DNA of 64,000 nucleotides from a virus: IMG/VR virus record IMGVR_UViG_3300037467_000284, positions 1 to 64,000 of that record; one strand, 5' to 3'. This document shows, piece after piece, positions 9,491-23,761 of this stretch. Each line of letters starts with the position of its first letter. The stretch's first letter is position 1. The translations under genes were made by a program, and so were the position numbers. Under the pieces are notes generated by a model. The model was not told where the DNA came from. It did not search any database and worked only from the letters and a program-made list of their open reading frames with translations.

Positions 9491-9520
9491 AAATAAAAAG
9501 GCCCGAATTAACGGGCCTTT
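9491..9520 (-). terminator. rho-independent terminator ending the AT-rich leftward operon
   Basis: GGCCCG-AATTAA-CGGGCC (9500-9517). On the minus strand it is followed by TTTTTATTTAT. It lies just after the stop of gene 9523-9756. Confidence 0.75.
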
Positions 9521-9522
9521 GC

Positions 9523-9756: not shown

Positions 9757-9771
9757 TTCATTTTCCTTTCG

Positions 9772-9927: not shown

Positions 9928-9932
9928 GATGT

Positions 9933-10175
9933 TTAATCCTCTAACTCGTATTCATAAAGTGAAAACGGCAATGCTTCGCCATTGTCAGCCCGTTTCAAAT
10001 CGTACAGAGGCATATTGCCCATAGTTTCATCGTAGCCGGGATGAAAACCGTTCGGCTTACCTTTGGCGAAGAATTCAGCCGCTGGCATGTATTTGGTGGC
10101 TTTGGACGTTACGATTAATTCGACATCACGCCACTGTTCGCCGTAGTTTTGTATTGCGTCTTCTGTCATTTTCAT
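9933..10175 (-). CDS. hypothetical protein
   Basis: 80 aa. Its start overlaps the stop of the upstream gene (ATGA). Confidence 0.6.
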   Translation of the reverse strand: MKMTEDAIQNYGEQWRDVELIVTSKATKYMPAAEFFAKGKPNGFHPGYDETMGNMPLYDLKRADNGEALPFSLYEYELED

Positions 10176-10375
10176 TACTTGCCCCTTTCGGCTAGTTTAT
10201 TTGCGATGGTTTGTAATGCAATATGGTCCGTGTCGTTTTGATTCCCGTTCCTGTAGCGCCTCAAACAAGCTTTGTCATCGATTGACAGGGACGCCAGCTT
10301 TTCAGCATCGAGAATGGCACTCATATAAAACGCTTTGCCGAGTGCGATGTTTTCGAGTTTCTTTGAGAGTTTCAT
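10175..10375 (-). CDS. hypothetical protein
   Basis: 66 aa with a GGGGCAATAATG-type RBS context. Confidence 0.55.
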   Translation of the reverse strand: MKLSKKLENIALGKAFYMSAILDAEKLASLSIDDKACLRRYRNGNQNDTDHIALQTIANKLAERGK

Positions 10376-10390
10376 TATTGCCCCAGTCTT

Positions 10391-10561
10391 TTAGCGGCTG
10401 GCCGGAATTCCGGCTTTACGTGCTTTAGTAATTGCGATCTGTGCGGCACGGTAGGATTTAAAGCGCTTGCCGTGGAAATGCCCGGTGTCGTCCGTTACAT
10501 AGCATTCCGACTTGTTGCAATAGCCGTTGATATACATGCCGTTATAGTAATGCGTGAACAT
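10391..10561 (-). CDS. hypothetical protein (56 aa)
   Basis: Found manually. AAGGAA RBS. Product MFTHYYNGMYINGYCNKSECYVTDDTGHFHGKRFKSYRAAQIAITKARKAGIPASR. Confidence 0.45.
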   Translation of the reverse strand: MFTHYYNGMYINGYCNKSECYVTDDTGHFHGKRFKSYRAAQIAITKARKAGIPASR

Positions 10562-10597
10562 AGTTTGTTCCTTTGGTCAGTGGTTAGAACATCTGTT

Positions 10598-10620
10598 AAT
10601 GCCCTACTTGGTAAGGCATT
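10598..10620 (-). repeat. intercistronic stem-loop family, copy 1
   Basis: Plus strand AATGCC-11 nt-GGCATT followed by GGCTG. It lies between the stop at 10631 and the start at 10561. Confidence 0.7.
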
Positions 10621-10630
10621 GGCTGAGGCT

Positions 10631-10969
10631 CTATTTACGCGGGTACAGGTCGAATGATCCTAGCAATTTATCCTCTCGTCCAAGCTTTGCGATTTCTTCG
10701 CATTGCTCGAATGAATACAGGGCGGATTCGTCGCCGTTTGGCGATATAACGCGGAAGTGCTGGCCGACTTCGATAATCTTGTAATCGTCATGGTTGGCGA
10801 ACAAATCCCTGCCAGCATTGATTGCCGCATTGCCTTGATTGCGGTTTTTCAAGTTGAGCATTGCCGTTATGTTGCCGTCGCCATACTCGCCACTTGCATA
10901 AAGCCGGAATGCCTCCCGGCATACGGATTCGCCATACTTGGCAATTGCCCGTTTCGTGTTTTGGTTCAT
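10631..10969 (-). CDS. hypothetical protein
   Basis: 112 aa with an RBS present. Confidence 0.6.
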   Translation of the reverse strand: MNQNTKRAIAKYGESVCREAFRLYASGEYGDGNITAMLNLKNRNQGNAAINAGRDLFANHDDYKIIEVGQHFRVISPNGDESALYSFEQCEEIAKLGREDKLLGSFDLYPRK

Positions 10970-10972
10970 TTC

Positions 10973-11302
10973 TTATTTCCTTTTCTTTTCAAGTAGCATC
11001 GTTGCCCCGAATTTAATTACCGTATCTTCAGGGTTCCATTCGTAATGCGGTTTGCTGATGACACCATTAATCGAGCGCGATTGCGAATAGTAAAGTTGAT
11101 CCGTCTCGGCGTCCAACACTTCCGCATATGTTGCCCCGTATTTGTTGATTTGCAGATTGCGCATGACGTTTAAGCCAGCTTCGAACAAATCACTTCCGTG
11201 ATTCGTTTTGACAATCTCACCGTTAAACACGTAACGAGTTTTAAGCTTGACTGGTGCATCTTTGGACCGACCAGAGTTCATTACGATTTTCTTGACTTGC
11301 AT
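10973..11302 (-). CDS. hypothetical protein
   Basis: 109 aa with an AAGGGGAAA RBS. Confidence 0.6.
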   Translation of the reverse strand: MQVKKIVMNSGRSKDAPVKLKTRYVFNGEIVKTNHGSDLFEAGLNVMRNLQINKYGATYAEVLDAETDQLYYSQSRSINGVISKPHYEWNPEDTVIKFGATMLLEKKRK

Positions 11303-11346
11303 CTATATTTCCCCTTGGATGATTTGAATAACTCGGCTAAGCCGTC

Positions 11347-11374
11347 AATGAGCACTCGTTATTGAATGCTCATT
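11347..11374 (-). repeat. intercistronic stem-loop family, copy 2
   Basis: Plus strand AATGAGCA-12 nt-TGCTCATT followed by AGCTG. It lies between the stop at 11381 and the start at 11302. Confidence 0.7.
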
Positions 11375-11380
11375 AGCTGG

Positions 11381-11758
11381 TTAGCGTTCCCGCGTTTCCC
11401 ACGCATTACGGGCCAATGGCTCGATATTATTGGCTTTGCAGTTTGCGGAATATGTTGCATATTCCAAGTCAACGAAATCGCCAATTGACCGCGTGAATAC
11501 ATTTGTTCGCAGTGCGTGCAAATACGCTGGCAACAACTCTTGTTCAGTTGCCGTGAGAGTCCAAAGCAGTGATAAGGGCGTTGAACCGTTGTGTTTGAAG
11601 AATTGCCACGCAACGTATCCACGCCTAGCGCATTCGTCATAAGCCGTTTCCAAATGCGCTGCATTGTCGGCATTAGGGTTTAGTTCGAGCTGGGCACGTT
11701 CCCCGGTGGCTGCGGTATATTCGCCTTTTGATGAGCGATTGAAGAATTGAGCATACAT
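11381..11758 (-). CDS. hypothetical protein
   Basis: 125 aa with an RBS present. Confidence 0.6.
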   Translation of the reverse strand: MYAQFFNRSSKGEYTAATGERAQLELNPNADNAAHLETAYDECARRGYVAWQFFKHNGSTPLSLLWTLTATEQELLPAYLHALRTNVFTRSIGDFVDLEYATYSANCKANNIEPLARNAWETRER

Positions 11759-11773
11759 TTTGATTTTTCCTTT

Positions 11774-11980
11774 TCAGAGTGGTACATAACGCTTTGCTGC
11801 CCTACGTGCGCCACTATAGCTTTTCCACGTCCTTACGTCGCCTCCTGTGGTGCGCAAATAGCCGTATTGCGTGCCGATGACGATATATTCATATTCATCA
11901 GCTTTAACGCGAAACTTAGCCACAGTGGGCGACTTAGGCTCTCGGCAACGTGAGTCAATACCATTCTCAAAGACAATCAT
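11774..11980 (-). CDS. hypothetical protein
   Basis: 68 aa with a GGAGGAACAA RBS. Confidence 0.55.
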   Translation of the reverse strand: MIVFENGIDSRCREPKSPTVAKFRVKADEYEYIVIGTQYGYLRTTGGDVRTWKSYSGARRAAKRYVPL

Positions 11981-12009
11981 TTGTTCCTCCGTTTAAAAGT
12001 TAATCCGTT

Positions 12010-12035
12010 AATGCCCACCTTTAATAATGGGCATT
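12010..12035 (-). repeat. intercistronic stem-loop family, copy 3
   Basis: Plus strand AATGCCCA-10 nt-TGGGCATT followed by GGCTG. It lies between the stop at 12048 and the start at 11980. Confidence 0.7.
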
Positions 12036-12047
12036 GGCTGATTAGCT

Positions 12048-12542
12048 TCAATTGTTATAGAAGTAATGCCCATTCGATTCGAAAAACGAATGGCTCAAAT
12101 CCCCGTTCCAATAGTGCTCCCAATCGATATAAGCAAACATTGGGTGACTTTCCTCAATCAAGCCAGTCTCTATTGCCCACTCTTCCGCAAAGTCTTTGCC
12201 GGAGTCGTATTTGCCTCTGTAATTGTCGCGTGCTGTTGCGAAATCACATTCACCGCAATTGGCAATATACGCTGCCCACATTTCCCGGTCATCTTCCTCC
12301 AATGCGGCAAGCTCAAAAGCTTTTTCGTTAATCGATGATTCGCTGATCAGAGCGTCCGGAATGTCTTCCCAATCTTGGAACATGAATTCAGGGTCAGATT
12401 CGTCCGCGTGAATTTCACGGCATTTTTCGTAGAATTCGTCTTTATCGTTGAAGTCTTCCAAATCAAGCCACTCACCTTTCAAGCTGCCTGAATTGTATTT
12501 GGCATAAGTGCCAACATAAACACGCATAGTGTCATTCGCCAT
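12048..12542 (-). CDS. ardA: ArdA-family anti-restriction protein
   Basis: 164 aa and very acidic. RVYVGTYAKYNSGSLKGEWLDLEDF... and the C-terminal ...AYIDWEHYWNGDLSHSFFESNGHYF match the ArdA (type I R-M inhibitor, DNA mimic) pattern. Confidence 0.8.
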   Translation of the reverse strand: MANDTMRVYVGTYAKYNSGSLKGEWLDLEDFNDKDEFYEKCREIHADESDPEFMFQDWEDIPDALISESSINEKAFELAALEEDDREMWAAYIANCGECDFATARDNYRGKYDSGKDFAEEWAIETGLIEESHPMFAYIDWEHYWNGDLSHSFFESNGHYFYNN

Positions 12543-12556
12543 TTTAAATCCCCTTG

Positions 12557-12862
12557 TTAGCTGAAGTATTGCCCGATGATGACGGAATCAAACGAGTCAT
12601 CAGCCCATTTCAACAAGATGCCGGAAAATGCGGAATCACTGTAATAGCCGTTCCACCCTTTGAACCATTCCGTTTCTGGACATTGCATAAATTCCCCGAT
12701 GTCGTAAAGCTGGCCCTTGAAACGGAAGAACTGCCGGTTATCGTTTCCGGAATCGATTGCCTGCCAGTTGATGTAATCGAATTCCTTACGTTCTTTTTCG
12801 GTTAGCTGGTATGCGTCAATAACTAGGCGCGGCACATTATTAGTGCGGACAGTGATAGCCAT
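12557..12862 (-). CDS. hypothetical protein
   Basis: 101 aa. Its start overlaps the upstream stop (ATGA-type). Confidence 0.6.
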   Translation of the reverse strand: MAITVRTNNVPRLVIDAYQLTEKERKEFDYINWQAIDSGNDNRQFFRFKGQLYDIGEFMQCPETEWFKGWNGYYSDSAFSGILLKWADDSFDSVIIGQYFS

Positions 12863-13185
12863 TATTGCCCCTTAGTGAATTTAAATTCGTGTTTGATTAC
12901 CTGTTTTATTTCGATGCCGTAATGCGTCAAAAACGCCCCGTATGCACTAGCTAGCTTTTGCCATGCATCCGCATCATCCGGGATACCAAGCAACTCTAAA
13001 CGCTTGTCTATCGCCTTCTCGTAACATCGGGGCATATCTTCAGGATTCGCACCAATATCTGTTTGTTCGCCATTACCAGTGACACGGATAATGTACGAAT
13101 TGGCGTTTTGAGCGTGTTTCTTGAAGTAGATGCCATATGGCGCACCACTGGCACGCAAAAGCTTAACCTGAGTTGTTTTAGTCAT
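12862..13185 (-). CDS. hypothetical protein
   Basis: ATG at 13185 preceded by AAGGA. The longer track ORF to 13290 runs through the intercistronic hairpin. Confidence 0.55.
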   Translation of the reverse strand: MTKTTQVKLLRASGAPYGIYFKKHAQNANSYIIRVTGNGEQTDIGANPEDMPRCYEKAIDKRLELLGIPDDADAWQKLASAYGAFLTHYGIEIKQVIKHEFKFTKGQ

Positions 13186-13214
13186 ACCTGTGCATCCTTC
13201 TAAGTAAATCCGAC

Positions 13215-13237
13215 AATGCCTAGACCAGCTAGGCATT
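13215..13237 (-). repeat. intercistronic stem-loop family, copy 4
   Basis: Plus strand AATGCCTAG-5 nt-CTAGGCATT followed by AGCTG. It lies between the stop at 13244 and the start at 13185. Confidence 0.7.
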
Positions 13238-13243
13238 AGCTGA

Positions 13244-13573
13244 TTAACTCTCAGCGTAGCTCTTAACAGCCCATTCGATATACGGGGCAACCCCTAAGCC
13301 GTGCAAGCCGTATCCGATGGCATCGCCAATGTATGCGATGCATTCGCTTTCGGCGTGACCAAGCCACTTTGAGATGACCACGCCGGTAACGGCTACTATG
13401 GTTCCAGTGGCGAGCCTGTAATAAAGCGGATGATCGTGACCGAACATCAGATTGCACAACGGATGCATGATATTCAGCCTGATCAGGACACGCTTGATAA
13501 CGCCCGGCTTTTTGGCATGGATAGTTGCCAGCTTGTTTTTGCCTTTCAATGGTGCGTTCGTGTGGCGAAACAT
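13244..13573 (-). CDS. hypothetical membrane protein
   Basis: 109 aa with hydrophobic central segments and an RBS present. Confidence 0.55.
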   Translation of the reverse strand: MFRHTNAPLKGKNKLATIHAKKPGVIKRVLIRLNIMHPLCNLMFGHDHPLYYRLATGTIVAVTGVVISKWLGHAESECIAYIGDAIGYGLHGLGVAPYIEWAVKSYAES

Positions 13574-13608
13574 TTTTATTATTCCCCTTGGTAATTTTGG
13601 TTTAGGTT

Positions 13609-14022
13609 TTATACAAAAACTTCGATTGCGGGCACAACATCCTCATGTGCAACAGCTCCGGCCAGAATTGCATCACGTTCGCGTTTCGCAATGAACGCTT
13701 TGCGAGTGATGCCGAGACTTACAGGCACGCTATCAGGACCATATACGGCGATGTTTGCTGGCGCATCCCATTCAAAGCCAACCGTTGCGATATACGGTGC
13801 ATCCGGGTCAACATCGGCTTTTGCGGCAGCGTAGCTATCGTACAAGTCGCCGGGATGGGCATTCAGCGTTCCCGGCTTGCCGGTGCGATGATAATAGCCC
13901 TGCTCGTAAATGTTCATGTAGCTAATGCGCTTTGCTTTAGCTGGAGTGCCAAACACGCGAACGGCAGCGAAGAGGCGCGCGAACAGATTACGGATGATGA
14001 TTGCTTTGATAAAGTTTTTCAT
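13609..14022 (-). CDS. hypothetical protein with N-terminal signal/anchor-like segment
   Basis: 137 aa. The N-terminus MKNFIKAIIIRNLFARLFAAVRVFG is hydrophobic. Confidence 0.55.
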   Translation of the reverse strand: MKNFIKAIIIRNLFARLFAAVRVFGTPAKAKRISYMNIYEQGYYHRTGKPGTLNAHPGDLYDSYAAAKADVDPDAPYIATVGFEWDAPANIAVYGPDSVPVSLGITRKAFIAKRERDAILAGAVAHEDVVPAIEVFV

Positions 14023-14047
14023 TTTTATTCCTCTTGGTATTAGTTAT

Positions 14048-14497
14048 TTATTGGATGAAGGTGTCAATACTGAATTTGCCGCTACCTGAAAAAACGCTAA
14101 CGAATAGCAATGCCATCAAAAGAATCTCAGGCAAGAAAAGCCAATTCGTTGCCCGGTCAAGCGTGTTGAAATTGCTTCGGGCATTTACCTTACGCGGGCC
14201 AGTCGTCACTGTGGCGACTATACAAACGATTATCAGCACGGCAGCGTGGAACGCAGTGAGAAAACCAATTGCATAGGCTAATCCACCGAAGCATTCCCAA
14301 AAAGCTACCCACCAGCAAAAGAAACTCACGAACGGAATTTGACATCCCGTTAAGCTGGCTATCAGGTTTTTATGTCCCTGATTTGTGAACAGCTTATTGA
14401 ATCCGGACATTGCGAAAAATACGCCAACAATAAAACGCGGGATGAAAAGCGCAATGTCATTTGCCGGAATCCCTTGCGTGACAAGCAAAAGCAACAT
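14048..14497 (-). CDS. DoxX-like integral membrane protein
   Basis: ATG at 14497 after GGAGG. It has four hydrophobic helices. IPRFIVGVFFAMSGFNKLF resembles the DoxX N-terminal motif. The family call is from memory. Confidence 0.5.
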   Translation of the reverse strand: MLLLLVTQGIPANDIALFIPRFIVGVFFAMSGFNKLFTNQGHKNLIASLTGCQIPFVSFFCWWVAFWECFGGLAYAIGFLTAFHAAVLIIVCIVATVTTGPRKVNARSNFNTLDRATNWLFLPEILLMALLFVSVFSGSGKFSIDTFIQ

Positions 14498-14501
14498 TTG
14501 T

Positions 14502-15053
14502 CTATGCCTCCATAGGCTCACGGATGAGGCGCAGAACGGCGAATTGCGTCTCAGTGTCGAAACGGGCAATGTATGCCGGTAATTGGGAAACAACCCACTC
14601 CAATTGATTTTCCGGGAATTGCCCGTTATTGCCTTTTGCATACAGGCTTTGCCCAATGGTGTCGGCGTACATGAGCAATGCTTCAAGCGATGTTTGCCCG
14701 AAAAATTCTTGCACTTCCCGCACGTGGATTGCACCAATGGCGATTTCCTCAGCCGTGCTAAACCCTTTGTTCAGGACGCAGTGCAAAACATCGTGCCAGA
14801 AACGAAATGCCCAGTTTGCACCAGCATTCGTGTAAATCGTGTTTTCACTTGCACCACGCCACACAGGCAGCGCGTGCCCGGTGGATTTGGACGCGTTCCA
14901 AGCCGTTTTAAGCTCGTTGAAATCATCCGGAGCTGCCGCTACATCAATGTAGCCAAAGCCGATTTTCTTTGCGATTTCGTCAGCTTTGCGGATGGCGAAT
15001 TGAGACAGGTTAATGCGTGCGGCTTCGATGTTTCGGATATGGGCAAAAGTCAT
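14502..15053 (-). CDS. hypothetical protein
   Basis: 183 aa with an RBS present. Confidence 0.6.
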   Translation of the reverse strand: MTFAHIRNIEAARINLSQFAIRKADEIAKKIGFGYIDVAAAPDDFNELKTAWNASKSTGHALPVWRGASENTIYTNAGANWAFRFWHDVLHCVLNKGFSTAEEIAIGAIHVREVQEFFGQTSLEALLMYADTIGQSLYAKGNNGQFPENQLEWVVSQLPAYIARFDTETQFAVLRLIREPMEA

Positions 15054-15112
15054 TTTTATTGTTCCAATCTTGTTTAGGTTTTAGTCTCATCAGCGCACGC
15101 ATTACGTGCGGA

Positions 15113-15134
15113 CAAAAGACCGGCTAGGCCGGTC
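15113..15134 (-). terminator. internal terminator/attenuator hairpin in the leftward operon
   Basis: GACCGGC-TAG-GCCGGTC. On the minus strand it is followed by TTTTG. A second hairpin, CGCACG-CATTA-CGTGCG, lies just downstream. Confidence 0.5.
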
Positions 15135-15149
15135 CATTGTTTCGACTTG

Positions 15150-15404
15150 TTACGGATTGCGGAAACCCTCATGGTTTTCCTTTTCCATTTCTTCCAGCGT
15201 TTGAATCTTTGGCGCGAATTCCACTTTTTCACCGCACAATGAATAATGCGTCACGCTGATTTCGAATCCTTCAGACTTTGGAAACCGTTTAACGAAGTCT
15301 TCATAAACGGTTTTCATTGCATCACGCGTGGCTTGATTGAAACTACGCTCATGCGTGGCAAAGTAGTGTTTTCCGTGTTTTGAGACGTTGATTTCGTAGT
15401 ACAT
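15150..15404 (-). CDS. hypothetical protein
   Basis: ATG at 15404 preceded by AAGGGGAAA. The longer track form has no RBS. Confidence 0.55.
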   Translation of the reverse strand: MYYEINVSKHGKHYFATHERSFNQATRDAMKTVYEDFVKRFPKSEGFEISVTHYSLCGEKVEFAPKIQTLEEMEKENHEGFRNP

Positions 15405-15478
15405 GATTATTTCCCCTTGCGAATGATTTTGGAAAGAGCGGCACGGAAAGCGGCACGCTGTTGTTTTACAGACATTTA

Positions 15479-15673
15479 TTAATCCCCTTTTTGATATAAA
15501 ACCCAAATGCCAAACATTACCATCAGCAAAAAGATAATGTCAGTTGCGGCGCAGATGTACAGCAAATCACTTTGCACTTTGCCGTAGAAACCTATGCCGA
15601 TTGCCCCGTTAAAAACAATTCCAACAATCGAAAACAAAATCGTCAGAATTGCCAAGAAATTTTTTACTTTCAT
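15479..15673 (-). CDS. small membrane protein
   Basis: 64 aa with two hydrophobic helices. Confidence 0.55.
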   Translation of the reverse strand: MKVKNFLAILTILFSIVGIVFNGAIGIGFYGKVQSDLLYICAATDIIFLLMVMFGIWVLYQKGD

Positions 15674-15785
15674 TTAGTCCCCTTAGAAATAGGCTTTGAT
15701 CATCACGTAGATATCGATTCCAGCAAAAAGAACCGCAATGCCGAGCATGTAATACCCGGCTTTGCGCTCTTCCCTGTCCCTGATT

Positions 15786-16490
15786 TCACGCTTGAGATAT
15801 TCGCTTTGCATTTGCGGCTTCATAGATAAGATGAATATCGGAATTAAAATCTACGAAAGCATCAGTGTTGAACCGGGAACCGAATTTTCCGTCAAGCATA
15901 GAGATAATGCCGGTGTCGCCATCGTCATCGTACCTTGGATATGGCGTATCTAACACTTCAGCCGAGAAATCAGAAATCTTGCGAAAGATAATCGGGTTTC
16001 CGATGAATTGAAAAACGCGGTCAACAGCCAGCAAGCCGAAAACAGTTCGCTTAGGGCCAATGCACTGTTCAGCATTCGGCAAAGCTACATCAGTAAGCCA
16101 CGAACTATAGGCCGCCTGAGCAACACGGTTATTGTCATAGTCCGTGATGAAATAGCCGTCAATGTCCGCTTGAATCATCAGTTCATTATTGATGATGTAA
16201 TAGTCGAGAAATTCCGCATTCATCTTTTCGATGATGGCATACAAAGCTTCGTCGCACAGGCCCAATACCTTGATTACAGCATCGGTAGTGGGCATGATGC
16301 CCGCTGGAAGGGGCACGACATCGTAAACATCAGCTGTTGCCTTGTGATATTTACGGCACGAATCGTTACACTGTTTGGCCGATTCCATTGCTTCAGCCAT
16401 CGTCGCGTAAGAGTCATAGCAAGTGCCTCCTTCAACTTCGCATAGTTCGCCAGTTTCGATTACGCGAACGGCATAGAAAGTATGTTTCAT
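15786..16490 (-). CDS. hypothetical protein
   Basis: 234 aa, the largest gene of the AT-rich operon. RBS present. Confidence 0.65.
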   Translation of the reverse strand: MKHTFYAVRVIETGELCEVEGGTCYDSYATMAEAMESAKQCNDSCRKYHKATADVYDVVPLPAGIMPTTDAVIKVLGLCDEALYAIIEKMNAEFLDYYIINNELMIQADIDGYFITDYDNNRVAQAAYSSWLTDVALPNAEQCIGPKRTVFGLLAVDRVFQFIGNPIIFRKISDFSAEVLDTPYPRYDDDGDTGIISMLDGKFGSRFNTDAFVDFNSDIHLIYEAANAKRISQA

Positions 16491-16532
16491 TATTATTTCC
16501 CTTGTTAGGTGAATTAAAACATCGCATGTAAT

Positions 16533-16556
16533 AGCGCATTACCGAAGCAATACGCT
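16533..16556 (-). repeat. intercistronic stem-loop family, copy 5 (divergent)
   Basis: AGCGCATT-8 nt-AATACGCT. The single C/A mismatch on the plus strand is a G.U pair on the coding (minus) strand. Confidence 0.5.
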
Positions 16557-16572
16557 ATAGCCTGAAATGTCT

Positions 16573-16839
16573 TTATTGCGGATCGTACTCTTCCAACATT
16601 TGTGGTTCCCCGTGCGCAGTTGGAAACGCGATTTGCCCGAACTCATTGACATAAGAGTCTTTGTGTACGGCATATAAGCGCCACGGACCGGAGATTTTGC
16701 CACCAGCGTTTTTAACTTGCCGTTTTGCCTCTTGCACCGTTGCCCCCTTGCCCCAGTGATTCGGAACAGTGATTAAGAAAATAAAATCAGGTGTCAGAAT
16801 GTTGTGCTTATTGTTCGGAATCGTTTTTGGTTTAATCAT
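16573..16839 (-). CDS. hypothetical protein (first gene of the AT-rich leftward operon)
   Basis: 88 aa with a GGAGGGTAACAAAATG RBS. Confidence 0.6.
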   Translation of the reverse strand: MIKPKTIPNNKHNILTPDFIFLITVPNHWGKGATVQEAKRQVKNAGGKISGPWRLYAVHKDSYVNEFGQIAFPTAHGEPQMLEEYDPQ

Positions 16840-17326
16840 TTTGTTACCCTCCTAAGAAATCACTAAAGTGAACACAAAATCATGCCTCCTGAACATGCCT
16901 AGATATATGTTCGGTTTAGCTCAGTCGGCATTGTTTTGCGCCTTATGGGCACATTCTTTTTTCCGTCATTCTTGACGTTTAATCACTCCCCGTCTCGCGT
17001 ACCATCCCGGTAGGCTATCGGATCAAAGCTTTCTTACTCGTATGCCGTGCCAAGAGGATTTAGGACCGAAGTCATGTCTACACTTGAACACTCAACTTAT
17101 CCGCTACACGCTGCCATCCCGGCAGTGCCACACTACTAAACTACTAAAACATACAACAGACCACAGAATACCAAACGGCTTAGGTATGTGCAATACCTAA
17201 ATCAAAATATTTCCACACGAATCGCAAAGCTGTTGCCTAACGACAAATTGCGCACGCGTAACACGCGAATAGCACGGGCCATGTAGCCGAGTCAAGCAAT
17301 TTCGGACGTAGTGTTGCTTTCCTATC

Positions 17327-18110
17327 TTATCCACAGGTTAGCAGCGTATCTAGCACTACTTATCCACATGCTCTAAAACGCGTTAAACGGGCCTGTAAGG
17401 CGTCCGGGAAGTCGGATGAACCCGTTTTCATCCGGTGTCCTGCGTGCCGTGGCAGTGCCTCAAAACGCGTTTAAACGGCATTGTCGAAAAGCAATTTTCT
17501 GTGGATAAGCTGTGGATTACACGTTTTTAACACTTTCAACATGAGTTTTTACATGGCATTTCGTCAGTCATCAAGCCGAACTCTGCCCGGACGGTAGGAC
17601 GCCACAACGGAAAACATCAGTAAAATCAATCACTTGAGTCTTATATAAGAGTTGGAAAATTCATCTATATGAATCGGTGGCACTCTTATATAAGACCTAA
17701 GACCACTCTTATATAAGACTAGGGAAAATGTAAAACACGGATTCATATAGATGACTAGATGAGTTAGTGGTATGGCTTTTGCCTTAGCAAGTAGCGTGCC
17801 AGCTACCACTACTTTGCCTGCTAGCTAGCCTGTCTTTGCTTTGTAGGTATGGTTCATAACCTTTTGTCATACCTTGTTTCCTGCTACGCTGGAACATCTG
17901 GGAATTTATACAGGATGGAACGAACGAAACATTAGGTTCTTACAAGCAATGTAATCACGGCTAGCTATTGCTATGCGATAGCTTATAAGCCGTGCTTATG
18001 CCTAGCTTTAGCTTGTGGATAACATGCATTGCTAGCAACTTTCCTAAAGGTTGTCCACAGGGACAGGGCTGTTTGCGCCTTTTGGCAGGGTTTTCCACAG
18101 CTTGTTCACA
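17327..18110. promoter_or_regulatory. DnaA-box cluster (oriC-like or DnaA-titrating region)
   Basis: Perfect TTATCCACA at 17327-17335 and 17360-17368. Perfect TGTGGATAA at 17500-17508 and 18014-18022. One-mismatch boxes at 17511-17519, 18051-18059 and 18091-18099. A two-mismatch box at 18102-18110. Confidence 0.7.
17638..17754. repeat. iteron-like 15-bp repeats plus a flanking 15-bp inverted repeat, AT-rich
   Basis: ACTCTTATATAAGAC at 17682-17696 and 17705-17719, with an inverted copy at 17638-17652. TTCATCTATATGAATC (17660-17675) pairs with GATTCATATAGATGA (17740-17754). Confidence 0.8.
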
Positions 18111-18270
18111 GATTTGCTGCTTTCAAGCAACGCCTTGCAATATTGGCAAGGAGTGGGCAGGATGTTAGCGCTAGCAGGAAAAGCAGCTCAGGGAAGGCTA
18201 GCAGCTAGAGACGCTTGGAAGGCTCCTAAACCTTCTGACTAAGATGGGGCGAGATAGGCTGGAACCACGC

Positions 18271-18341
18271 TAAGAAAGAAGTAGAAAATTCCCCACTCCC
18301 TGTCGAAATTCTGACTTCTGATTTCCAGATAGGATTTCGAG
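18271..18341 (+). repeat. long direct repeat, copy 1
   Basis: 18271-18309 is identical to 23629-23667 (39 of 39). The next 32 nt match 19 of 32 without gaps by manual alignment. Confidence 0.9.
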
Positions 18342-18349
18342 ACAAGCCC

Positions 18350-18379
18350 AAAAAGAAAAGCCCCGCACGAAGGCGGGGC
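18350..18379 (-). terminator. rho-independent terminator of the 22924-18407 leftward block
   Basis: GCCCCGC-ACGAAG-GCGGGGC. On the minus strand it is followed by TTTTCTTTTT. It lies 28 nt after the stop of gene 18407-18784. Confidence 0.75.
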
Positions 18380-18406
18380 CGGGACGCGTTTGGAAATTTT
18401 TACGTT

Positions 18407-18784
18407 TCAAAATCCTTTCCACTGGAAGTGAATGGTATTAACGTACTGCCATTCAATCGCCCCAGTAAGCCCAATTAGCACAATCTGCGCAATGGCCCAG
18501 CCGGTCGAGACATCTTTGAATAGGTAGTACAGCATGCTACCGGATGCCACTACCAGCAGCAGGCAGTAGAAGGCGATAAGAATCCACGGGACGTTCTGCG
18601 TAGCAACCTCAGCGGAAAGTACGAGCACTACAGCGGATGGGACAAACAGCACGGTTGCGAACGTCGAACCCAAGATGCGGAGGACTGATTCGATGGCGAA
18701 AGCCTTGGTTTTCTCATAGCACATGAGAGCCCCAAGGCCAGCGACAACAAGCCATAAGATCAAACTGTCAGTGGCGGTTGGCAT
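18407..18784 (-). CDS. integral membrane protein
   Basis: 125 aa with about four hydrophobic helices. Confidence 0.6.
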   Translation of the reverse strand: MPTATDSLILWLVVAGLGALMCYEKTKAFAIESVLRILGSTFATVLFVPSAVVLVLSAEVATQNVPWILIAFYCLLLVVASGSMLYYLFKDVSTGWAIAQIVLIGLTGAIEWQYVNTIHFQWKGF

Positions 18785-18794
18785 GGTAGGCTCC

Positions 18795-19406
18795 TTAGAC
18801 GTACTTCTCAGCGTTAAAGGCTTCCATGAACGCGTTAAAGCCGTCCGGGTCGCCTACGGTGTAGTTCCAGTCCGCTACCACTTCGCTGCCATCGTCCGCG
18901 TTGCCGAACACGAAGCGAATGTAGTGTTGGCCGAAACCTTCTTTAAAGACGTACAAGGTGCAGTCGTCTAGATTGAACATGACTTCCATTGCCTGCTTCG
19001 TGAAGTCGCCCTTGTTCAGTAGGATTTGGGTCAATTCTTCGCCGTCATCGATGTCCACCAACTTGAATCCGGCTTGCTGAAGCTCGGTAAGCAGGGCGTA
19101 GACAACTTTACGCTCGTTCTTGGCCCGGATGTGCATCGGCTCGTTCTTCCAGAGCACCTTATCGATGTCCAGAGCCGGGAAGCCGTTCTCTGCTACGCTG
19201 GTGTCAACACCTCTGCATTCAAGCAGGTAGCGTACGAAGGCAGCTTCTAGCTTAGCTGCCCTGTCGTCCATCTGGAGCGTGATGTTCGATTGCTTGGCCC
19301 GGAATTGCATGTCTTCGAAGGCATGGTCGATGATTGCCTGTTCTTCCTGCGTCAGAACAGTGGAACGCTTGTTGAGGAAATCGCGGTCTGCGGCTGATAG
19401 GGTCAT
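18795..19406 (-). CDS. hypothetical protein
   Basis: ATG at 19406 after AAGGAG. It abuts the stop of the upstream gene at 19408. The longer track ORF overlaps that gene. Confidence 0.6.
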   Translation of the reverse strand: MTLSAADRDFLNKRSTVLTQEEQAIIDHAFEDMQFRAKQSNITLQMDDRAAKLEAAFVRYLLECRGVDTSVAENGFPALDIDKVLWKNEPMHIRAKNERKVVYALLTELQQAGFKLVDIDDGEELTQILLNKGDFTKQAMEVMFNLDDCTLYVFKEGFGQHYIRFVFGNADDGSEVVADWNYTVGDPDGFNAFMEAFNAEKYV

Positions 19407-19407
19407 T

Positions 19408-19674
19408 TCACTTCTCCTTTGGTTGCTTGGTTGCTTGGTTGATTGCTGCTTTGATTTCATCGTGCATTCGATGAGCCTTGGACGGGGCAATAGCGTACTT
19501 GCGGACGGTGGATTCCAGATACAGCAAGTCACTGCCCGGATAGGTTGTTGCGAAGTAGGACGCCCCTTTCGTCTTACGACCGTCCGGGTACTTTACAAGC
19601 CATACTGTTCGGTCGGATAACTTGGAATGCAGGGTGACAGTGGGGACAGGCCGTGGCTGAGTTGCGTAAGTCAT
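19408..19674 (-). CDS. hypothetical protein
   Basis: 88 aa. Its start overlaps the upstream stop (ATGA). Confidence 0.55.
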   Translation of the reverse strand: MTYATQPRPVPTVTLHSKLSDRTVWLVKYPDGRKTKGASYFATTYPGSDLLYLESTVRKYAIAPSKAHRMHDEIKAAINQATKQPKEK

Positions 19675-19940
19675 GACTGCGCCTTCCTGATCACGAGCTT
19701 GTCGATCTTCACGCTGGAACCATCTTCAGCGAATACGATGTCTTTGAAGTAGGCACTAGCTTTCTTGAACCACTCCTTGTCATTCTCGTACTTCACTTCT
19801 AGCCGCACAGAAGTAGCCTGCATCTTGACGCGGAGTGTTCCACCAGCGAATTCCCGTTGGAAGTGTCCCCAACGATCTTGCTTGTAGCCAGCCAACGGGA
19901 GGAAATCATGGAGGCGTTGCTCATTGGATATCTTGCCCAT
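19671..19940 (-). CDS. hypothetical protein
   Basis: ATG at 19940 after GGAGG. It abuts the stop at 19942. Confidence 0.55.
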   Translation of the reverse strand: MGKISNEQRLHDFLPLAGYKQDRWGHFQREFAGGTLRVKMQATSVRLEVKYENDKEWFKKASAYFKDIVFAEDGSSVKIDKLVIRKAQS

Positions 19941-19941
19941 G

Positions 19942-20124
19942 TCATGACCTCCGCAGTACGGTAGTGTACACGGTGACGGTTTGCCCACTGTAGGTCTGGG
20001 CAAGGTTGGCTTTAGCAGTGTTATACTCCTGCTCGTTATCGAACGTCACAACCTGCGAGGTCAGTGAGGAAGCGTTGCTCTCGCTGTACGGGTGCTCGTG
20101 GACAGTGATAAGGACAGTCAGCAT
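19942..20124 (-). CDS. hypothetical protein
   Basis: 60 aa with an AAGGAGC RBS. Confidence 0.5.
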   Translation of the reverse strand: MLTVLITVHEHPYSESNASSLTSQVVTFDNEQEYNTAKANLAQTYSGQTVTVYTTVLRRS

Positions 20125-20170
20125 TTCAAGCTCCTTTTGGTTGATGGAGAGTGCTACAACATCAGCCTAT

Positions 20171-20202
20171 CACAAACGACAACGCCCCGCAAGAGCGAGG
20201 CG
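20171..20202 (-). terminator. possible internal terminator
   Basis: The minus strand folds CGCCTCGC-TCTT-GCGGGGCG (one G.U pair), followed by TTGTCGTTTGTG. Confidence 0.4.
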
Positions 20203-20225
20203 CATAGTGTGGTAAGAACGTAGCA

Positions 20226-20630
20226 CTACTTACGGATAGGCTCACGAACAGTGGGCTTCTCTTCGGCCTCCACTCGCTGTATGCTGTCTCTTTCCCAACT
20301 CGGGCCGGAAAACACAGGACGAGACTTAAACTCAACAGCCGTGATTTGCCAATTGTGGGCCAACAAAGATGCAATGTGCTGGCGGCGCTTAGGGAACAGA
20401 ACAAGCAGTTCAGCAAAGGCAGCTTGCTTAGCCTCCCGTACTTGTTCAGCTACTTCCGTGGCAGATGCCATAGCCTCATTGCCTGACCAGTACTCTCCCA
20501 GTCCTCCATCATCGGTCTGCCAAGCACCGGGGCCGTCCGGGGCGTCCTCGATCAACTTAACCGCGTGAGTGTAGTGGCGTCCATTGGCGTTGATGCCAAT
20601 GATTGCGTAAGCGTTAGGTTGAGTTTTCAT
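20226..20630 (-). CDS. hypothetical protein
   Basis: 134 aa. Its start overlaps the upstream stop. Confidence 0.6.
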   Translation of the reverse strand: MKTQPNAYAIIGINANGRHYTHAVKLIEDAPDGPGAWQTDDGGLGEYWSGNEAMASATEVAEQVREAKQAAFAELLVLFPKRRQHIASLLAHNWQITAVEFKSRPVFSGPSWERDSIQRVEAEEKPTVREPIRK

Positions 20631-21031
20631 TATTCTTCCTCGTCCGGGATTGCTTCAACGGCAGCACGGGCCTTAGCTACCATTTCCTCGTACTTCTGCA
20701 CATGCGCCAGTAGCTCTTGCTTAGTGGCGTACCGGGAGACCGGAAGAAGGGACGGCTCGTTCAGGGCACGGACTTGAACCAGTGCGTCACGCTCGGCGTT
20801 ATGACGGCGAGCAGCGGCGACATCGAATTCCAGCCATCCACCGTGACCGAAGCCATTCCCGTTAGCGGCGAAGCGTTTCTCAGTGCCAGCATCGGTAGTC
20901 ACCGTTATCTGCCCAGATGGGCTTACCTTAGTGATTTTTCCGAAGACGTAGTACCCGAACGTGCGGCTGTTGATTGCCACTTCATTACCTATCGGCTCGC
21001 CGTGTTTCAGCCTATACTCATGGATGTTCAT
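20630..21031 (-). CDS. hypothetical protein
   Basis: ATG at 21031 (MNIHEYRLKHGE...) after AAGGGG. The longer track ORF overlaps two upstream genes. Confidence 0.55.
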   Translation of the reverse strand: MNIHEYRLKHGEPIGNEVAINSRTFGYYVFGKITKVSPSGQITVTTDAGTEKRFAANGNGFGHGGWLEFDVAAARRHNAERDALVQVRALNEPSLLPVSRYATKQELLAHVQKYEEMVAKARAAVEAIPDEEE

Positions 21032-21044
21032 CGCTACATACCCC

Positions 21045-21203
21045 TTATTGGAAGTTATCCCACTGGCGTTTGGTGTCCATGCGTTCCCACTGCTTGCCAC
21101 GCTTCGCCTGCTGGACAGGCTCTTGCTGTTCCCCACGCGGAGGGCGTGCGTTGCGTTCCTTGCGTGCAGTGCTCTTGCTCTCAAAATTGCTATTGCCTTG
21201 CAT
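21045..21203 (-). CDS. small basic protein (52 aa)
   Basis: Found manually. GGGAGA RBS. It fills the gap between 21243 and 21031 exactly. Confidence 0.4.
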   Translation of the reverse strand: MQGNSNFESKSTARKERNARPPRGEQQEPVQQAKRGKQWERMDTKRQWDNFQ

Positions 21204-21242
21204 GATGCGATATTCTCCCTAGTTGTTGGTGTTTGTTGCTGC

Positions 21243-21788
21243 TTATACTGCGAAAGCCTTGTCACGCAGCTTTTCGGCTTTGCGTTGCTTCCGGGTGACG
21301 GCCACGCGGGTGTTCGACCACACTTTGTTGCTGTAGCCTTTGACACGGATAGCCTTGCCATCTTCACGCCCGGTGAAACGGCCTTCCAGCTTGTTACGGC
21401 TCTCGTAGAGCTTCACATGCACACCGAAGGGCCAGTTGGTAGCCGGATGCGAGTAGCTAGCAGGCTGGGATTCTGCTGCGAAATCTTCGGCTGCGATTCC
21501 AGCACTATCCGCCAACGATTCTTCTTTCGAGTCGAACAGGAGAGGCACGCTTGCCTTGTCGGTGTCGTCGCTGGTTGCTGCTTTCGGGGCGGGAATGGAG
21601 CCGTTAATAGGCTCTTTCCCGGTGGCCTGCAAGTGCTTGGTGATTGCGCCCTTGGCGTTGCCCAGCGTTGCGTAGCCGTCAATGTTAAACTTCGTGTCAT
21701 TCTCGGTGCTCTGCACGAAGAAGCGGTCGGACGAGTTGGCGATGCCGCACAGGATGGTGAAGCCTTTGTATTCAACGGTTTTCTGCAT
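21243..21788 (-). CDS. hypothetical protein
   Basis: 181 aa with a GGAGAG RBS. Confidence 0.6.
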   Translation of the reverse strand: MQKTVEYKGFTILCGIANSSDRFFVQSTENDTKFNIDGYATLGNAKGAITKHLQATGKEPINGSIPAPKAATSDDTDKASVPLLFDSKEESLADSAGIAAEDFAAESQPASYSHPATNWPFGVHVKLYESRNKLEGRFTGREDGKAIRVKGYSNKVWSNTRVAVTRKQRKAEKLRDKAFAV

Positions 21789-22069
21789 TTCAGCTCTCCA
21801 GAGAGGAAGTTGGTTTCGGTTTATTTCTGCTACGTAAGTAGCTAGCTAGTGCTACGTATTATGCCGAGCAAATTATGAACGTGCAAGCACATTTTGAACG
21901 TCATGGGAAGTGTTGCGAGGACGCCACACGCGAAGACCAAGCGTTGCGTTGAGGCGGTAGTAGGCGGGGAGGACGTAGAGGACGAAGCTAGTCATAATGC
22001 TGTCGGGACAGGGTGAGTTGATAGAGTGGACATCCTACCATATTTCCCCTGTCCCGCAGCGCGGGAAGC

Positions 22070-22924
22070 TTATTTAGTCGGTGCTGGAGCCTTTTGGAAG
22101 CGTCCCCCAGTTCCGCGCTGCTTGCCTCCGGTGGGAGCCTTCGCGGCTGGCTGCTGTTGTGCCGGTGCTATGGGCTGTGCCCCGGCTTGTTCCAGATGTT
22201 GCGCAAACTGCGCCACGGGGTCAGCGCTGGCTTTCACTGCTTGCAGCATCGCCTTACTCTTTGCAACTGCGTCTGCTGCCTCTTGCTTGATGGCTTTTTC
22301 GAACTCAACCGTCAGTTCAGCGATGGCTTTCTGCGCCGCGTCACGATCTGTGGTAGCCTTCTGAACTTCCGCGTCGAGCAGCGCGATGTGCTGCTGTTGT
22401 GCCATGATGAACTTGTTGAGAGTTTCGATGCGACGGAACAAGCCAACACTGGGCAGTTCGCCAGCTACATCGGCAGGCAGCTCAGGCTTTACAGGAGCCT
22501 GCGGAATCGGGGCCAGCGTCTCGCCCGGTTGCGGCAAGTTGCCTTGTGCAGCGGGAGGGGCTGGCTGATGCTCGATAGCCTTGGCTGCGCTCTTGCGGGG
22601 CGTTGCCGGGGCAGGAGCGGACACCAGTGCGCCCGGAGCGGAAGACGCCAAGATATTCGGCAAGTGACGGGGCGTGCGCGGGAGACGCTGACGGATACGC
22701 AACACTTGATCGTTCCTGTTAGTCGCCTGCTTGAAGCGTTCCATCAGTACCTTCTCGTCTGCTGCGGACAGAGGGGCGGTCATGTGGTAGTAGTCCAGCG
22801 GCACGTATTTCGGATTGCCGTGGCCGTCCCATGCCTGAATCTGGTTCCCGTTGATTGTGTCAGACAGGAAGACAACAGCAGCATTTTTGGCGCGGTCGAA
22901 GCGGCAGAGGATGTCAGTAGCCAT
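22070..22924 (-). CDS. hypothetical protein with Pro/Ala-rich linker and C-terminal coiled coil
   Basis: 284 aa with an AAGGAG RBS. It is the first gene of the leftward block. Confidence 0.65.
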   Translation of the reverse strand: MATDILCRFDRAKNAAVVFLSDTINGNQIQAWDGHGNPKYVPLDYYHMTAPLSAADEKVLMERFKQATNRNDQVLRIRQRLPRTPRHLPNILASSAPGALVSAPAPATPRKSAAKAIEHQPAPPAAQGNLPQPGETLAPIPQAPVKPELPADVAGELPSVGLFRRIETLNKFIMAQQQHIALLDAEVQKATTDRDAAQKAIAELTVEFEKAIKQEAADAVAKSKAMLQAVKASADPVAQFAQHLEQAGAQPIAPAQQQPAAKAPTGGKQRGTGGRFQKAPAPTK

Positions 22925-23628
22925 TTTGATACTCCTTAGTAGAGGGAAGATTTAAGTCGGTGCTTGCGTTGCTTTCGTCCTTTGGTTCGTATGCATCGCG
23001 GACAATTCCAATGGTAGCGAAATCTGCGGACAGTTCAAGCAGAAATTCAATCGTGCGCAGAGTGTTTTGAGATGTTTTGAGATTACGCAAGGATTTTCGT
23101 GGTGAATAAACAACATAACCGGAAAAATTTTCTTACAGGCTTTGTAAGTTGCCAGTGCTGCGTTCTGTTTGCTTTTCGGAAAGTCAGAATTCTCTTACAA
23201 AACAGGGAGTTACGTAGGAAAGAACGAAGCAATACATAGCTATCTACCGCGATGCAGCAATAGGTTAGAAGCTATTTAACTGTAAGTCTGTCCAGTATTT
23301 TCCTTGTCGTACGCCCAATTTTCAGGTAAAATGAGAAGTGGGTGGGAGATTGCCCGTTATTCAGGATCGCTGTTTTCTGCCTAAAATTTACTCAAATTTG
23401 AAGGAGCCGTAAGCCTTCTGGGCCGCTGCATTGTCCAGAGCGAACAGGAACGTACCAACGTAGCGAGAAGACAACAGACAGGGTAGAAAGTGCTCCCTAG
23501 CAACCTTCGAGGGGCTGTGGCAACTTTCAGCCCTAGCGAAGAAAGTAGGGTTGCGTTACATGCCAAGGTAAGACGCGGAGAACGTTTTGCTGTTCCTTGC
23601 TGTGCAGGAGAACAACTGACCCTTCACA

Positions 23629-23699
23629 TAAGAAAGAAGTAGAAAATTCCCCACTCCCTGTCGAAATCTCAGCACATGATTTCTAAGTAGGATTCCGGG
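23629..23699 (+). repeat. long direct repeat, copy 2
   Basis: See 18271-18341. It lies 5358 bp from copy 1 in the same orientation. Confidence 0.9.
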
Positions 23700-23732
23700 A
23701 AAATGTTTTTGTAAGAACGTAGCACTACCTGC

Positions 23733-23761
23733 TTGACAAACGAAATTTCTGCGTGCAGAAT
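23733..23761 (+). promoter_or_regulatory. sigma70-type promoter, start of the long rightward module
   Basis: TTGACA (23733-23738), 17 nt, CAGAAT (23756-23761). Confidence 0.6.

Follow-up and report, generated by a model that had tools for sequence, protein, structure and literature searches.

A conserved gene-free module of DnaA boxes and palindromes in an uncultivated phage family, a candidate replication origin that resembles T5 Repeat Region 3

What is the role of a gene-free stretch of about 1.5 kb that separates two early gene blocks in an uncultivated phage with a genome of about 90 kb? The stretch is located at 16840-18406 of the 64,000 nt analyzed here, hereafter the window (IMG/VR record IMGVR_UViG_3300037467_000284, positions 1 to 64,000). 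A preliminary description of the sequence had reported a region free of open reading frames (ORFs) in which DnaA boxes flank AT-rich repeats. It had considered a phage origin, a sink for host DnaA, DnaA-dependent control of the adjacent early operon and, listed last, a T5-like injection-stop region. All of its coordinates match the sequence, and the longest ORF in the stretch indeed encodes only 63 amino acids (aa). The block described there is real, but the module runs past the end assigned to it, up to a transcription terminator, and the AT-richness applies to the palindrome array (72% AT) and not to the region as a whole, which has a GC content of 0.44. Judged by its sequence, the stretch is a conserved non-coding platform for protein binding. 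The module is under purifying selection, is dense in protein-binding sites by consensus, shows a fixed geometry of DnaA boxes and is built in a modular way; its predicted sites agree with the consensus sequences of the host proteins DnaA and IHF. The coordinates of all features are collected in Table 1.

The perfect DnaA box (TTATCCACA) is found six times in the window, compared to 0.37 expected copies, which agrees with the earlier estimate of less than one per 64 kb, and none of 100 shuffles reached six. Four perfect boxes are located within 700 bp. Together with three boxes with one mismatch and one with two mismatches, all of them listed before and recovered at the same positions, they form a left and a right cluster of in total eight boxes that flank the palindrome array. 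The left cluster consists of two forward boxes, a TTAAAACGCGTTTAAA motif and two reverse boxes, while the order is reverse box, motif, reverse box and forward box in the related phages L005, L006, L010 and L124. The same forward pair is found in L007, L008 and L009, and reverse pairs occur at the equivalent place in L005-L010 and L124. The two tight pairs, 17500/17511 and 18091/18102, have 2-bp gaps. This 11-bp phasing with 2-bp gaps fits the site arrays of oriC that were reportedly described by Rozgaja et al. in 2011.

To identify relatives, the DNA ligase of the phage was used in a search that yielded 13 related viral contigs, mostly 82-91 kb in size, with a ligase identity of 63-69% for L005-L010. 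Two further contigs of about 90 kb from Logan, L123 and L124, were added via homologs of a conserved neighbour protein. The module is found at the same place, and is gene-free, in nine related metagenomic phages of about 90 kb. L005-L010 carry 4-7 perfect boxes each, all of them within 0.7-1.3 kb of a gene-poor stretch that lies 4-6.5 kb upstream of the ligase gene, and no perfect box is found elsewhere in these loci of about 21 kb. In L124, every perfect box of the locus of about 20 kb is inside the gene-free stretch; the same applies to four of the five in L123, and L012 retains four boxes with at most one mismatch. Conservation among relatives, on which the preliminary description had made its proposal depend, was thus observed for the boxes. 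The retention of the module in related phages indicates that it is functional.

An alignment of seven of the regions (alignment A2, mean column identity 46%) contains the DnaA boxes as invariant islands. Further islands are GGTATGCGCAATACC..CAAAATAATTT, CGCGTAGCAAG, CCCCTTAAAACGCGTTTAAAyGG beside TGTGGATAAC, AAAATCAACAACTTrAGTCTTATATAAGAG, GCAAGTAGCGTGCCAGC, TGTGGATAACnTG, GTTGTCCACAG, the double box TTnTCCACAGsTTrTyCACA, and CTAAGAA..AAAATTCCCCAGyCC..GAAAtTC. The conserved core is found on the right, where TGTGGATAACnTG is invariant in all seven sequences. Starting from the reverse box, the forward boxes follow at distances of 37, 40 and 11 bp in five phages (the window phage, L008, L009, L012 and L123) and at 58, 31 and 11 bp, followed by a further 11 bp, in three others (L005, L006 and L124). 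L012 and L123 are devoid of the left boxes and the palindromes, but keep the promoter P_left, the TTAAAACGCGTTTAAA motif or its surroundings, the right cluster, the twin element and the terminator (see below). This pattern indicates that the right cluster is the conserved core and the left half a replaceable module.

Between the clusters, a 15-mer reported to occur twice directly and once inverted (ACTCTTATATAAGAC) is present as described. Its core is a perfect 12-bp palindrome, TCTTATATAAGA, and apart from the three copies in the array, the window contains only a single copy with one mismatch, at position 1364. The repeats, formerly termed iterons, are therefore real but are perfect palindromes rather than directional iterons. 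The relatives carry 3-5 copies, mostly with a period of 23 bp, and in six of seven phages the least stable 40-mer of the region is the palindrome array, with an AT content of 70-78%. A separate unwinding element of the 13-mer type was not seen in the region. The inverted repeat said to bracket the array was found as well; it is 19 nt long, 95% complementary and, in alignment A2, confined to the window phage. A moderately AT-rich stretch leads from the left DnaA cluster to a candidate IHF site that abuts the array and is part of the conserved block AAAATCAACAACTTrAG. The strict IHF consensus is also present at the equivalent position in L005, L006, L007, L009 and L124, i.e. in six phages including the window phage.

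The best reading of these data, put forward tentatively, is that the module serves as a phage replication origin helped by host DnaA and IHF. Host DnaA would occupy the two box clusters, and the 11-bp spacing of boxes in the same orientation would allow a DnaA oligomer to form, by analogy to the low-affinity arrays of oriC. IHF would then bend the DNA at its consensus site next to the palindrome array. A putative dimeric protein would bind the AT-rich TCTTATATAAGA array, where the duplex of the region is least stable, and the array would melt. The gp4-type primase-helicase and the family-A DNA polymerase of the phage could finally take over the opened DNA, in a setting in which no RNA polymerase of its own would be at hand to open the origin in the manner of T7. 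Both replication proteins are encoded in the window, in agreement with the T7-like replisome noted before, and the window proteins that were scanned include no RNA polymerase. The conserved IHF-consensus site and the box arrays with 11-bp phasing newly strengthen this reading. The enrichment and conservation of the boxes, their fixed geometry and the unstable palindrome array also speak for it, and a left half that can be exchanged, together with spacer repeats that differ by lineage, is what would be expected of modules that change along with their initiator.

Several known systems share parts of this architecture. Repeats of about 22 bp, together with DnaA boxes and an IHF site, are the hallmarks of the origins of pSC101, P1 and RK2. 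More specifically, pSC101 ori, P1 oriR, RK2 oriV and R6K gamma resemble the module in that boxes flank an AT-rich stretch, next to a (here candidate) IHF site and 3-5 repeats at a distance of about 22-23 bp. Such iteron-type theta origins differ in that a rep gene is usually adjacent to them, which is not the case here, and in that their iterons, at least three of about 17-22 bp in helical phase, are directional, in contrast to the 12-bp perfect palindromes. The module is also 3-5 times larger and is part of a lytic-type phage with a T7-like replisome. oriC, datA and DARS share TTATCCACA clusters with same-orientation arrays, 2-bp gaps and an IHF site. Unlike oriC, however, the module is flanked by phage early genes, without synteny to dnaA, dnaN or gidA; it has no GATC cluster, and no DnaA-trio was recognized in it on inspection. 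The lambda ori and the lambda operators OR/OL resemble the array in having 3-4 dyad-symmetric sites with a period of about 23-24 bp, bound by a dimeric protein in lambda and presumably in the array too, but the lambda ori is located inside the O gene and lacks DnaA boxes, and the lambda operators overlap promoters whereas no promoter overlaps the array. An origin claim for phage PseuGes_254 that is based on Ori-Finder (PMC11512268) is a prediction only and was rejected as not comparable.

A number of observations weigh against an origin. DnaA boxes to the left and right of AT-rich repeats do give the region the origin-like architecture noted in the preliminary description, yet no initiator gene was found, the GC skew is indecisive, and the repeats are missing in two relatives, L012 and L123. 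Of 20 proteins from the flanks or the replication module, none is Rep-, O- or initiator-like. The early proteins on either side lack Pfam matches and belong only to PHROGs of unknown function, and the predicted structure of the conserved neighbour protein (predicted local distance difference test score, pLDDT, 85.7) has no fold match in the PDB. The minimum of the cumulative GC skew coincides with the module in the window, L005 and L007, but is displaced from it by 1.5-2 kb in L008 and L009. The skew therefore reflects gene content no less than the module, and was discarded as evidence for an origin because of this inconsistency among relatives. The more distant contigs L013 and L014 contain no comparable region, and the TCTTATATAAGA array matches none of the plasmid iterons in PLSDB. 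Different from enterobacterial oriC, GATC is absent between 17022 and 18757. A phage with its own replisome is not known to need DnaA. Finally, the replication origins of T5 have been mapped elsewhere than in its most similar region (Davison, bioRxiv 10.1101/866236).

Table 1 Features of the gene-free module and its surroundings (positions refer to the window)
Feature	Position	Strand	Remarks
Early cluster 2, first gene	16839..16573	-	ATG at 16839; ribosome-binding site AGGAGGG before ATG
Gene-free stretch	16840-18406		between two minus-strand gene blocks; longest ORF 63 aa
Untranslated leader, ~320 nt	16840..17158	-	from predicted P_left start site to first cluster-2 gene; no ORF, no Rfam match
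P_left, sigma-70-like promoter (predicted)	17165-17212	-	-35 TTGCAC 17193..17188; 17-nt spacer; -10 TATTCT 17170..17165
GC-rich block GCGCACGCGTAACACGCG	17250-17267		relatives carry ...CGCGTAGCAAG; conserved island in A2
Left DnaA cluster, forward pair	17327-17335, 17360-17368	+	both perfect; same pair in L007, L008, L009
Motif AAAACGCGTT(T)AAACGG, two copies	17375-17391, 17462-17478		
Hairpin GGATGAA-n6-TTCATCC	17413-17433		
Left DnaA cluster, reverse pair	17500-17519	-	perfect box 17500-17508 and one-mismatch TAATCCACA at 17511; 2-bp gap
Candidate IHF site AATCAATCACTTG (consensus WATCAANNNNTTR)	17624-17636	+	ends two bases before first palindrome (17639)
15-mer ACTCTTATATAAGAC	17638, 17682, 17705		inverted at 17638, direct at 17682 and 17705
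Palindrome array, 3x TCTTATATAAGA	17639, 17684, 17707 (17639-17718)		last two 23 bp apart
19-nt inverted repeat TCATCTATATGAATCGGTG / CACGGATTCATATAGATGA	17661-17679 / 17736-17754		encloses last two palindromes
Conserved block GCAAGTAGCGTGCCAGCTACCACTAC	17787-17812		alignment A2
Variable spacer	17820-18010		short inverted repeats GCTAGC at 17820, 17824, 17960
Right DnaA cluster, conserved core	18014-18110		perfect reverse box 18014-18022; forward one-mismatch boxes 18051 (+37) and 18091 (+40); two-mismatch box TTGTTCACA 18102-18110 (+11)
Twin element copy 1, ~75 bp, core AAAATTCCCCA	18271-18345	+	~100 bp past right cluster
Intrinsic terminator of early cluster 1	18350-18380	-	8-bp stem, 7 GC pairs, then T-run
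Early cluster 1	22924..18407	-	4.5 kb; ends in intrinsic terminator 18380..18350
Twin element copy 2, then P_right	23629-23761	+	P_right TTGACA-17-CAGAAT at 23733-23761

To see whether the array is also found beyond this phage family, viral contigs were scanned for two TCTTATATAAGA palindromes 8-16 bp apart. The scan yielded 28 loci, 27 of them new and mostly with a 23-bp period, and in nine loci perfect DnaA boxes are located within about 50-350 bp of the array. In two groups of phages (B and C), the array precedes the terS, terL and portal genes by 480-730 bp. In the smaller phages L033, L034, L038 and MW202796, it is found about 3 kb upstream of an operon that encodes primase-helicase and polymerase, a placement in favor of an origin, and 6 of 14 whole small contigs start inside the array. 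A DNA-binding protein shared by the array-bearing phages was sought as well, but only the primase-helicase and polymerase families are common to the present phage group and the other groups. By sequence comparison, the TCTTATATAAGA array repeatedly accompanies DnaA boxes in several groups of phages, a finding that is new here.

Palindrome pairs also occur in bacteria. Three species of Bradyrhizobium carry a TCTTATATAAGA pair upstream of a small RHH-like ORF and jetA, and in a proteobacterial metagenome-assembled genome a pair precedes tctBA and tctC. Such operator-like pairs in bacterial promoter regions imply that the palindromes may be operators and not initiator sites, which is a further argument against the origin. 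The Bradyrhizobium pair has a spacing of 23 bp (L095 6672-6706, L110 7273-7307, L114 6259-6293) and the conserved RHH-like ORF, for which no phage homolog was found, comprises 63-77 aa. The pair is possibly the operator of the Wadjet (jetA) operon, which follows the RHH-like ORF in L095.

One of the array-bearing phages provides a link to T5. In MW202796 (L119), an uncultured phage of 43.8 kb, the array is located between divergent early (replication) and late (terL) operons. At 5930-6075, beside the TCTTATATAAGA array, the sequence TAAATGAGAATGATTCTCATT matches the palindrome of the T5 injection-stop (iss) region at 20 of 21 positions, and box pairs of the GGGGATAAGT type directly adjoin the array. 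Both elements are almost identical to their T5 counterparts, the palindromes and DnaA-like boxes of the injection-stop region (T5 is L048 here, 9468-9637).

The corresponding T5 Repeat Region 3 (AY587007 9194-10409; for the iss region, see also Heusterspreute et al. 1987) is an untranslated stretch of 1.2 kb that is much better conserved than the neighbouring ORFs. Besides palindromes, it contains DnaA boxes in pairs 3 bp apart, arranged as inverted repeats around a bent spacer of 52 bp, as well as nine direct repeats. The region spans the border at the inner side of the 10-kb terminal repeat and has been proposed to be an injection stop signal that acts via membrane-bound DnaA (Davison, bioRxiv 10.1101/866236). 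Read from the sequence, the order of its parts is AAATTAAACGCGTTAG, palindrome D, reverse box pairs, four AT-rich palindromic repeats and nine copies of TGTGCAAATCCGACA, with AAATTAAACGCGTTAG at the place that corresponds to the AAAACGCGTT(T)AAACGG motif of the window phage. The T5 palindromes GAATCATTATCATTC presumably resemble a Fur box.

A first alternative is that the module belongs to the same class as T5 Repeat Region 3 and is a cis element for DNA entry or for the genome end. Host proteins such as membrane-associated DnaA would load on the entering DNA and pause or anchor it after the first 5 kb or so, i.e. early cluster 1, and the twin elements of about 75 bp could border a long terminal repeat. 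This alternative, which is unlikely on balance, gains support from the part order and from the bridge that MW202796 provides. Both regions are untranslated, repeat-dense stretches of 1.2-1.5 kb between early gene blocks, are much more conserved than the adjacent sequence and share close pairs of DnaA or DnaA-like boxes (2 bp apart in the module), and the common order is a AAACGCGTT motif, reverse box pairs, AT-rich palindromes and many lineage-specific short repeats. Direct copies of the twin element flank early cluster 1, which ends in a terminator; they are compatible with the borders of a terminal repeat but do not prove them. If the genome end were near 23.6 kb, the module would be located about 6-7% from it, compared to 7.9% in T5, and the arrays just upstream of terS and terL as well as the small contigs that begin inside the array are compatible with a genome end. 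However, contig starts inside arrays can be assembly breaks in tandem repeats, and the ends of the contigs of about 90 kb fall at unrelated places, so that no consistent physical terminus emerges from them, and no termini were located in this phage family. T5 shares no DNA or protein homology with the window phage, and its pre-early proteins dmp, A1 and A2 as well as ORF2 and ORF11 gave no tblastn hit at E<1 in the window and ten related-phage loci. The palindromes differ as well (TTAAATGAGAATCATT in T5, TCTTATATAAGA here), and the boxes of the module face both ways, in oriC-like arrays with the fixed reverse/+37/+40/+11 core. For T5, too, the role assigned to the DnaA boxes is no more than a hypothesis put forward in a preprint.

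DnaA-box-rich untranslated regions are already known from T5-like phages, as are origins with DnaA boxes and iterons from plasmids and P1. New are, at the sequence level, the presence of a module of this kind, its box geometry preserved exactly, in an unrelated family of uncultivated phages of about 90 kb, and the bridge between this module and the T5 region in MW202796. DnaA is normally thought to play no part in lytic phages that come with a replisome of their own. The strict positional conservation of boxes in ten such phages implies that host DnaA, or a protein of the same specificity, is part of their biology. The T5 parallel and MW202796 suggest one widespread class of phage non-coding elements that are made of host-factor sites. 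A wider proposal would be that a family of lytic-type phages, which have a T7-like replisome but do not encode an RNA polymerase, recruits host DnaA and IHF to an oriC-like modular origin and hands the opened DNA to the gp4-type primase-helicase, and that the T5 injection-stop region belongs to the same class of elements. It is doubtful, although somewhat less so than the T5-class alternative; if true, the 40-year-old T5 puzzle would turn out to be a replication or organizing centre loaded with host factors instead of a passive stop signal. The conserved core and the natural variants without the left half could serve to distinguish between an origin, an entry pause and an insulator.

The last of these, a control or insulator region for early transcription, is a similarly unlikely explanation. 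Here, the palindromes would be operators for a dimeric regulator of phage or host with lambda-like spacing, and the box clusters would be roadblocks or co-regulators that keep the two early clusters apart and adjust P_left to the DnaA state of the host. The module is in fact located between a terminator and the conserved P_left. An early-operon promoter had been postulated for the region, and P_left, upstream of cluster 2, is a good candidate: the block GGTATGCGCAATACC..CAAAATAATTT is nearly invariant in seven of seven sequences, and counterparts are found in L005 (TTGCGC-17-TAGAAT) and L009 (TTGCAT-17-TAATAT). Its -35 element is part of a hairpin, GGTATGTGCAATACC, with an A/T tract upstream. 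As P_left remains under the threshold of a simple promoter scan, the call is inferred from conservation; it should drive cluster 2 via the leader, which contains conserved blocks in the relatives (alignment A2, columns 200-560).

The operators of lambda OR have a spacing of 23 bp, as do the palindromes here, and the same pair is found in the bacterial promoter regions described above. In small phages, the array is placed between divergent early and late operons with strong promoters. P_right, the promoter for the ligase and replication genes, has the second copy of the twin element 45-75 bp upstream of it, and DnaA-DNA complexes can reportedly block RNA polymerase (Schaefer and Messer). On the other hand, the array is located about 450 bp and the boxes 130-330 bp upstream of P_left, too far for ordinary operator action. 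The scan revealed no other promoter in the region, about 1.1 kb with eight boxes is far beyond the needs of a switch, and a gene for a regulator was not found.

A DnaA sink of the datA or DARS kind, in which the clustered high-affinity boxes and the candidate IHF site of the multiplying phage DNA would titrate host DnaA or render it inactive and thereby stop initiation at the host chromosome, is improbable. The 7-10 boxes per genome copy, their conservation in relatives and the conserved IHF consensus site are in favor of it, as datA of E. coli needs a box cluster and IHF. A sink leaves the palindrome array, the lineage-specific repeats, the 37/40/11 geometry and the twin element unexplained, however, and the gain for a lytic phage is not evident. 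Slightly less probable still is a centromere-like or packaging site with short repeats bound by a partition protein or the small terminase subunit, to segregate the phage in a carrier state or to initiate packaging, as the array upstream of terS, terL and portal in groups B and C, the 6-12 short inverted repeats of the spacer, and the parS sites and serine recombinase of the window (see below) are countered by the lack of terminase genes near the module in this phage group, of parS in the relatives, and of a ParA- or ParB-like gene among the proteins scanned. Also rejected was a structured non-coding RNA gene, since Rfam gave only sub-threshold hits in the region, located on the terminator, and the conserved islands resemble protein-site palindromes and boxes.

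The duplicated AAAACGCGTT(T)AAACGG motif and the hairpin between its copies are both present as previously noted; the second copy is the family-invariant motif CCCCTTAAAACGCGTTTAAAyGG. For the GC-rich block at 17250-17267, CGCGTAGCAA is found in L005-L010 and L124. The sequence GTAGCACTAC, akin to the conserved block GCAAGTAGCGTGCCAGCTACCACTAC, is located directly upstream of the -35 element of P_right. The variable spacer ranges from 300 to 1100 bp across the family, and its inverted repeats are lineage-specific, with ATCGATAG-type units in L005-L007 and about 12 units of the GTTGC-N6-7-GCAAC type in L123. In the window phage, further GCTAGC copies at 18031, 18170 and 18197 are found among and past the right-hand boxes, so that 6 of the 25 copies in the window fall in 17820-18202. 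An extra ORF of about 188 aa is present in the spacer of L008 (4560-5330) and L012 (3210-3776, minus strand), which marks the spacer as an insertion hot spot. A CtrA box was considered for TTAAAACGCGTTTAA and discarded, as the window copy reads TCAA and TTAA-N7-TTAA does not occur in the window.

The two copies of the twin element are 5.36 kb apart. The segment 18271-18309 recurs without change at 23629-23667, as a perfect direct repeat of 39 bp, and the likeness extends over about 75 bp. Two direct copies are found in the window, L005, L007, L008, L009, L010 and L012, and one was found in L006. Within a phage, the copies are partly homogenized: they share an uninterrupted stretch of 39 nt in the window phage and of about 40 nt in L010. 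Hairpins equivalent to the terminator are present in relatives.

Searches of the region against 50,697 phage records (megablast, blastn) gave no DNA match. Logan run SRR35147169 contains the same phage, with 100% identity across the region; its contigs break at 18280-18300 because of the 39-bp twin repeat. Searches of viral contigs with two small flanking proteins were unsuccessful, and an 88-aa neighbour protein is a singleton among 5.8 billion proteins. The family-A polymerase shares at most 51% identity with any deposited phage. Its best relatives, from Aeromonas phage phiA047 and Pseudomonas phage PAK_P3, were rejected as comparators since they are not syntenic, and no DnaA boxes were found in the stretch from 50 to 88 kb of PAK_P3.

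The window further encodes RtcB, an ATP-dependent DNA ligase, an RNA ligase and a UvrD-like helicase, the nucleotide metabolism enzymes ribonucleotide reductase, ThyX and NAMPT with PRPP synthetase, and one serine recombinase and one tRNA. Early cluster 2 has a GC content of 0.43-0.50, compared to 0.51-0.59 in cluster 1 and the rest of the genome, and this compositional boundary (9500-17000 versus 18400-23000) coincides with the module. RtcB, the RNA ligase and the tRNA-Arg(TCT) constitute an RNA-repair set, and NAMPT with PRPP synthetase corresponds to NAD salvage (4257-5504, 26831-27997, 41985-42061 and 53062-56061, including the NAD-salvage genes); these genes suggest counter-defence against host systems that cleave tRNA and deplete NAD. 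The serine recombinase (Pfam Resolvase, 222 aa, 2717-3385, plus strand) adjoins the RtcB region and may act as an invertase or as a resolvase of multimers; its presence in a lytic-type genome is unexpected. Antisense to the leader of cluster 2, GGTTTAGCTCAGTCGG... at 16913-16955 (plus strand) resembles the 5' part of a tRNA (acceptor and D arm), although ARAGORN and Rfam called nothing at this position.

parS sites are known from phage phi29. The window contains the parS consensus TGTTTCACGTGAAACA as a perfect copy at 8569-8584 and with one mismatch at 8689-8704, within a 32-bp direct repeat, which implies, as far as sequence motifs can tell, a host with ParABS; as part of the module system, parS was rejected due to its absence from the relatives. 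A second ORF-free, repeat-dense region is located at 8160-9500 and contains about 12 copies of the near-palindrome GCC(A/T)T(A/T)GGC and its variants, with one reverse DnaA box at the left edge (8385). The repeats are kept in L049, L050, L057 and L089, and the edge box in L057, L089 and L123.

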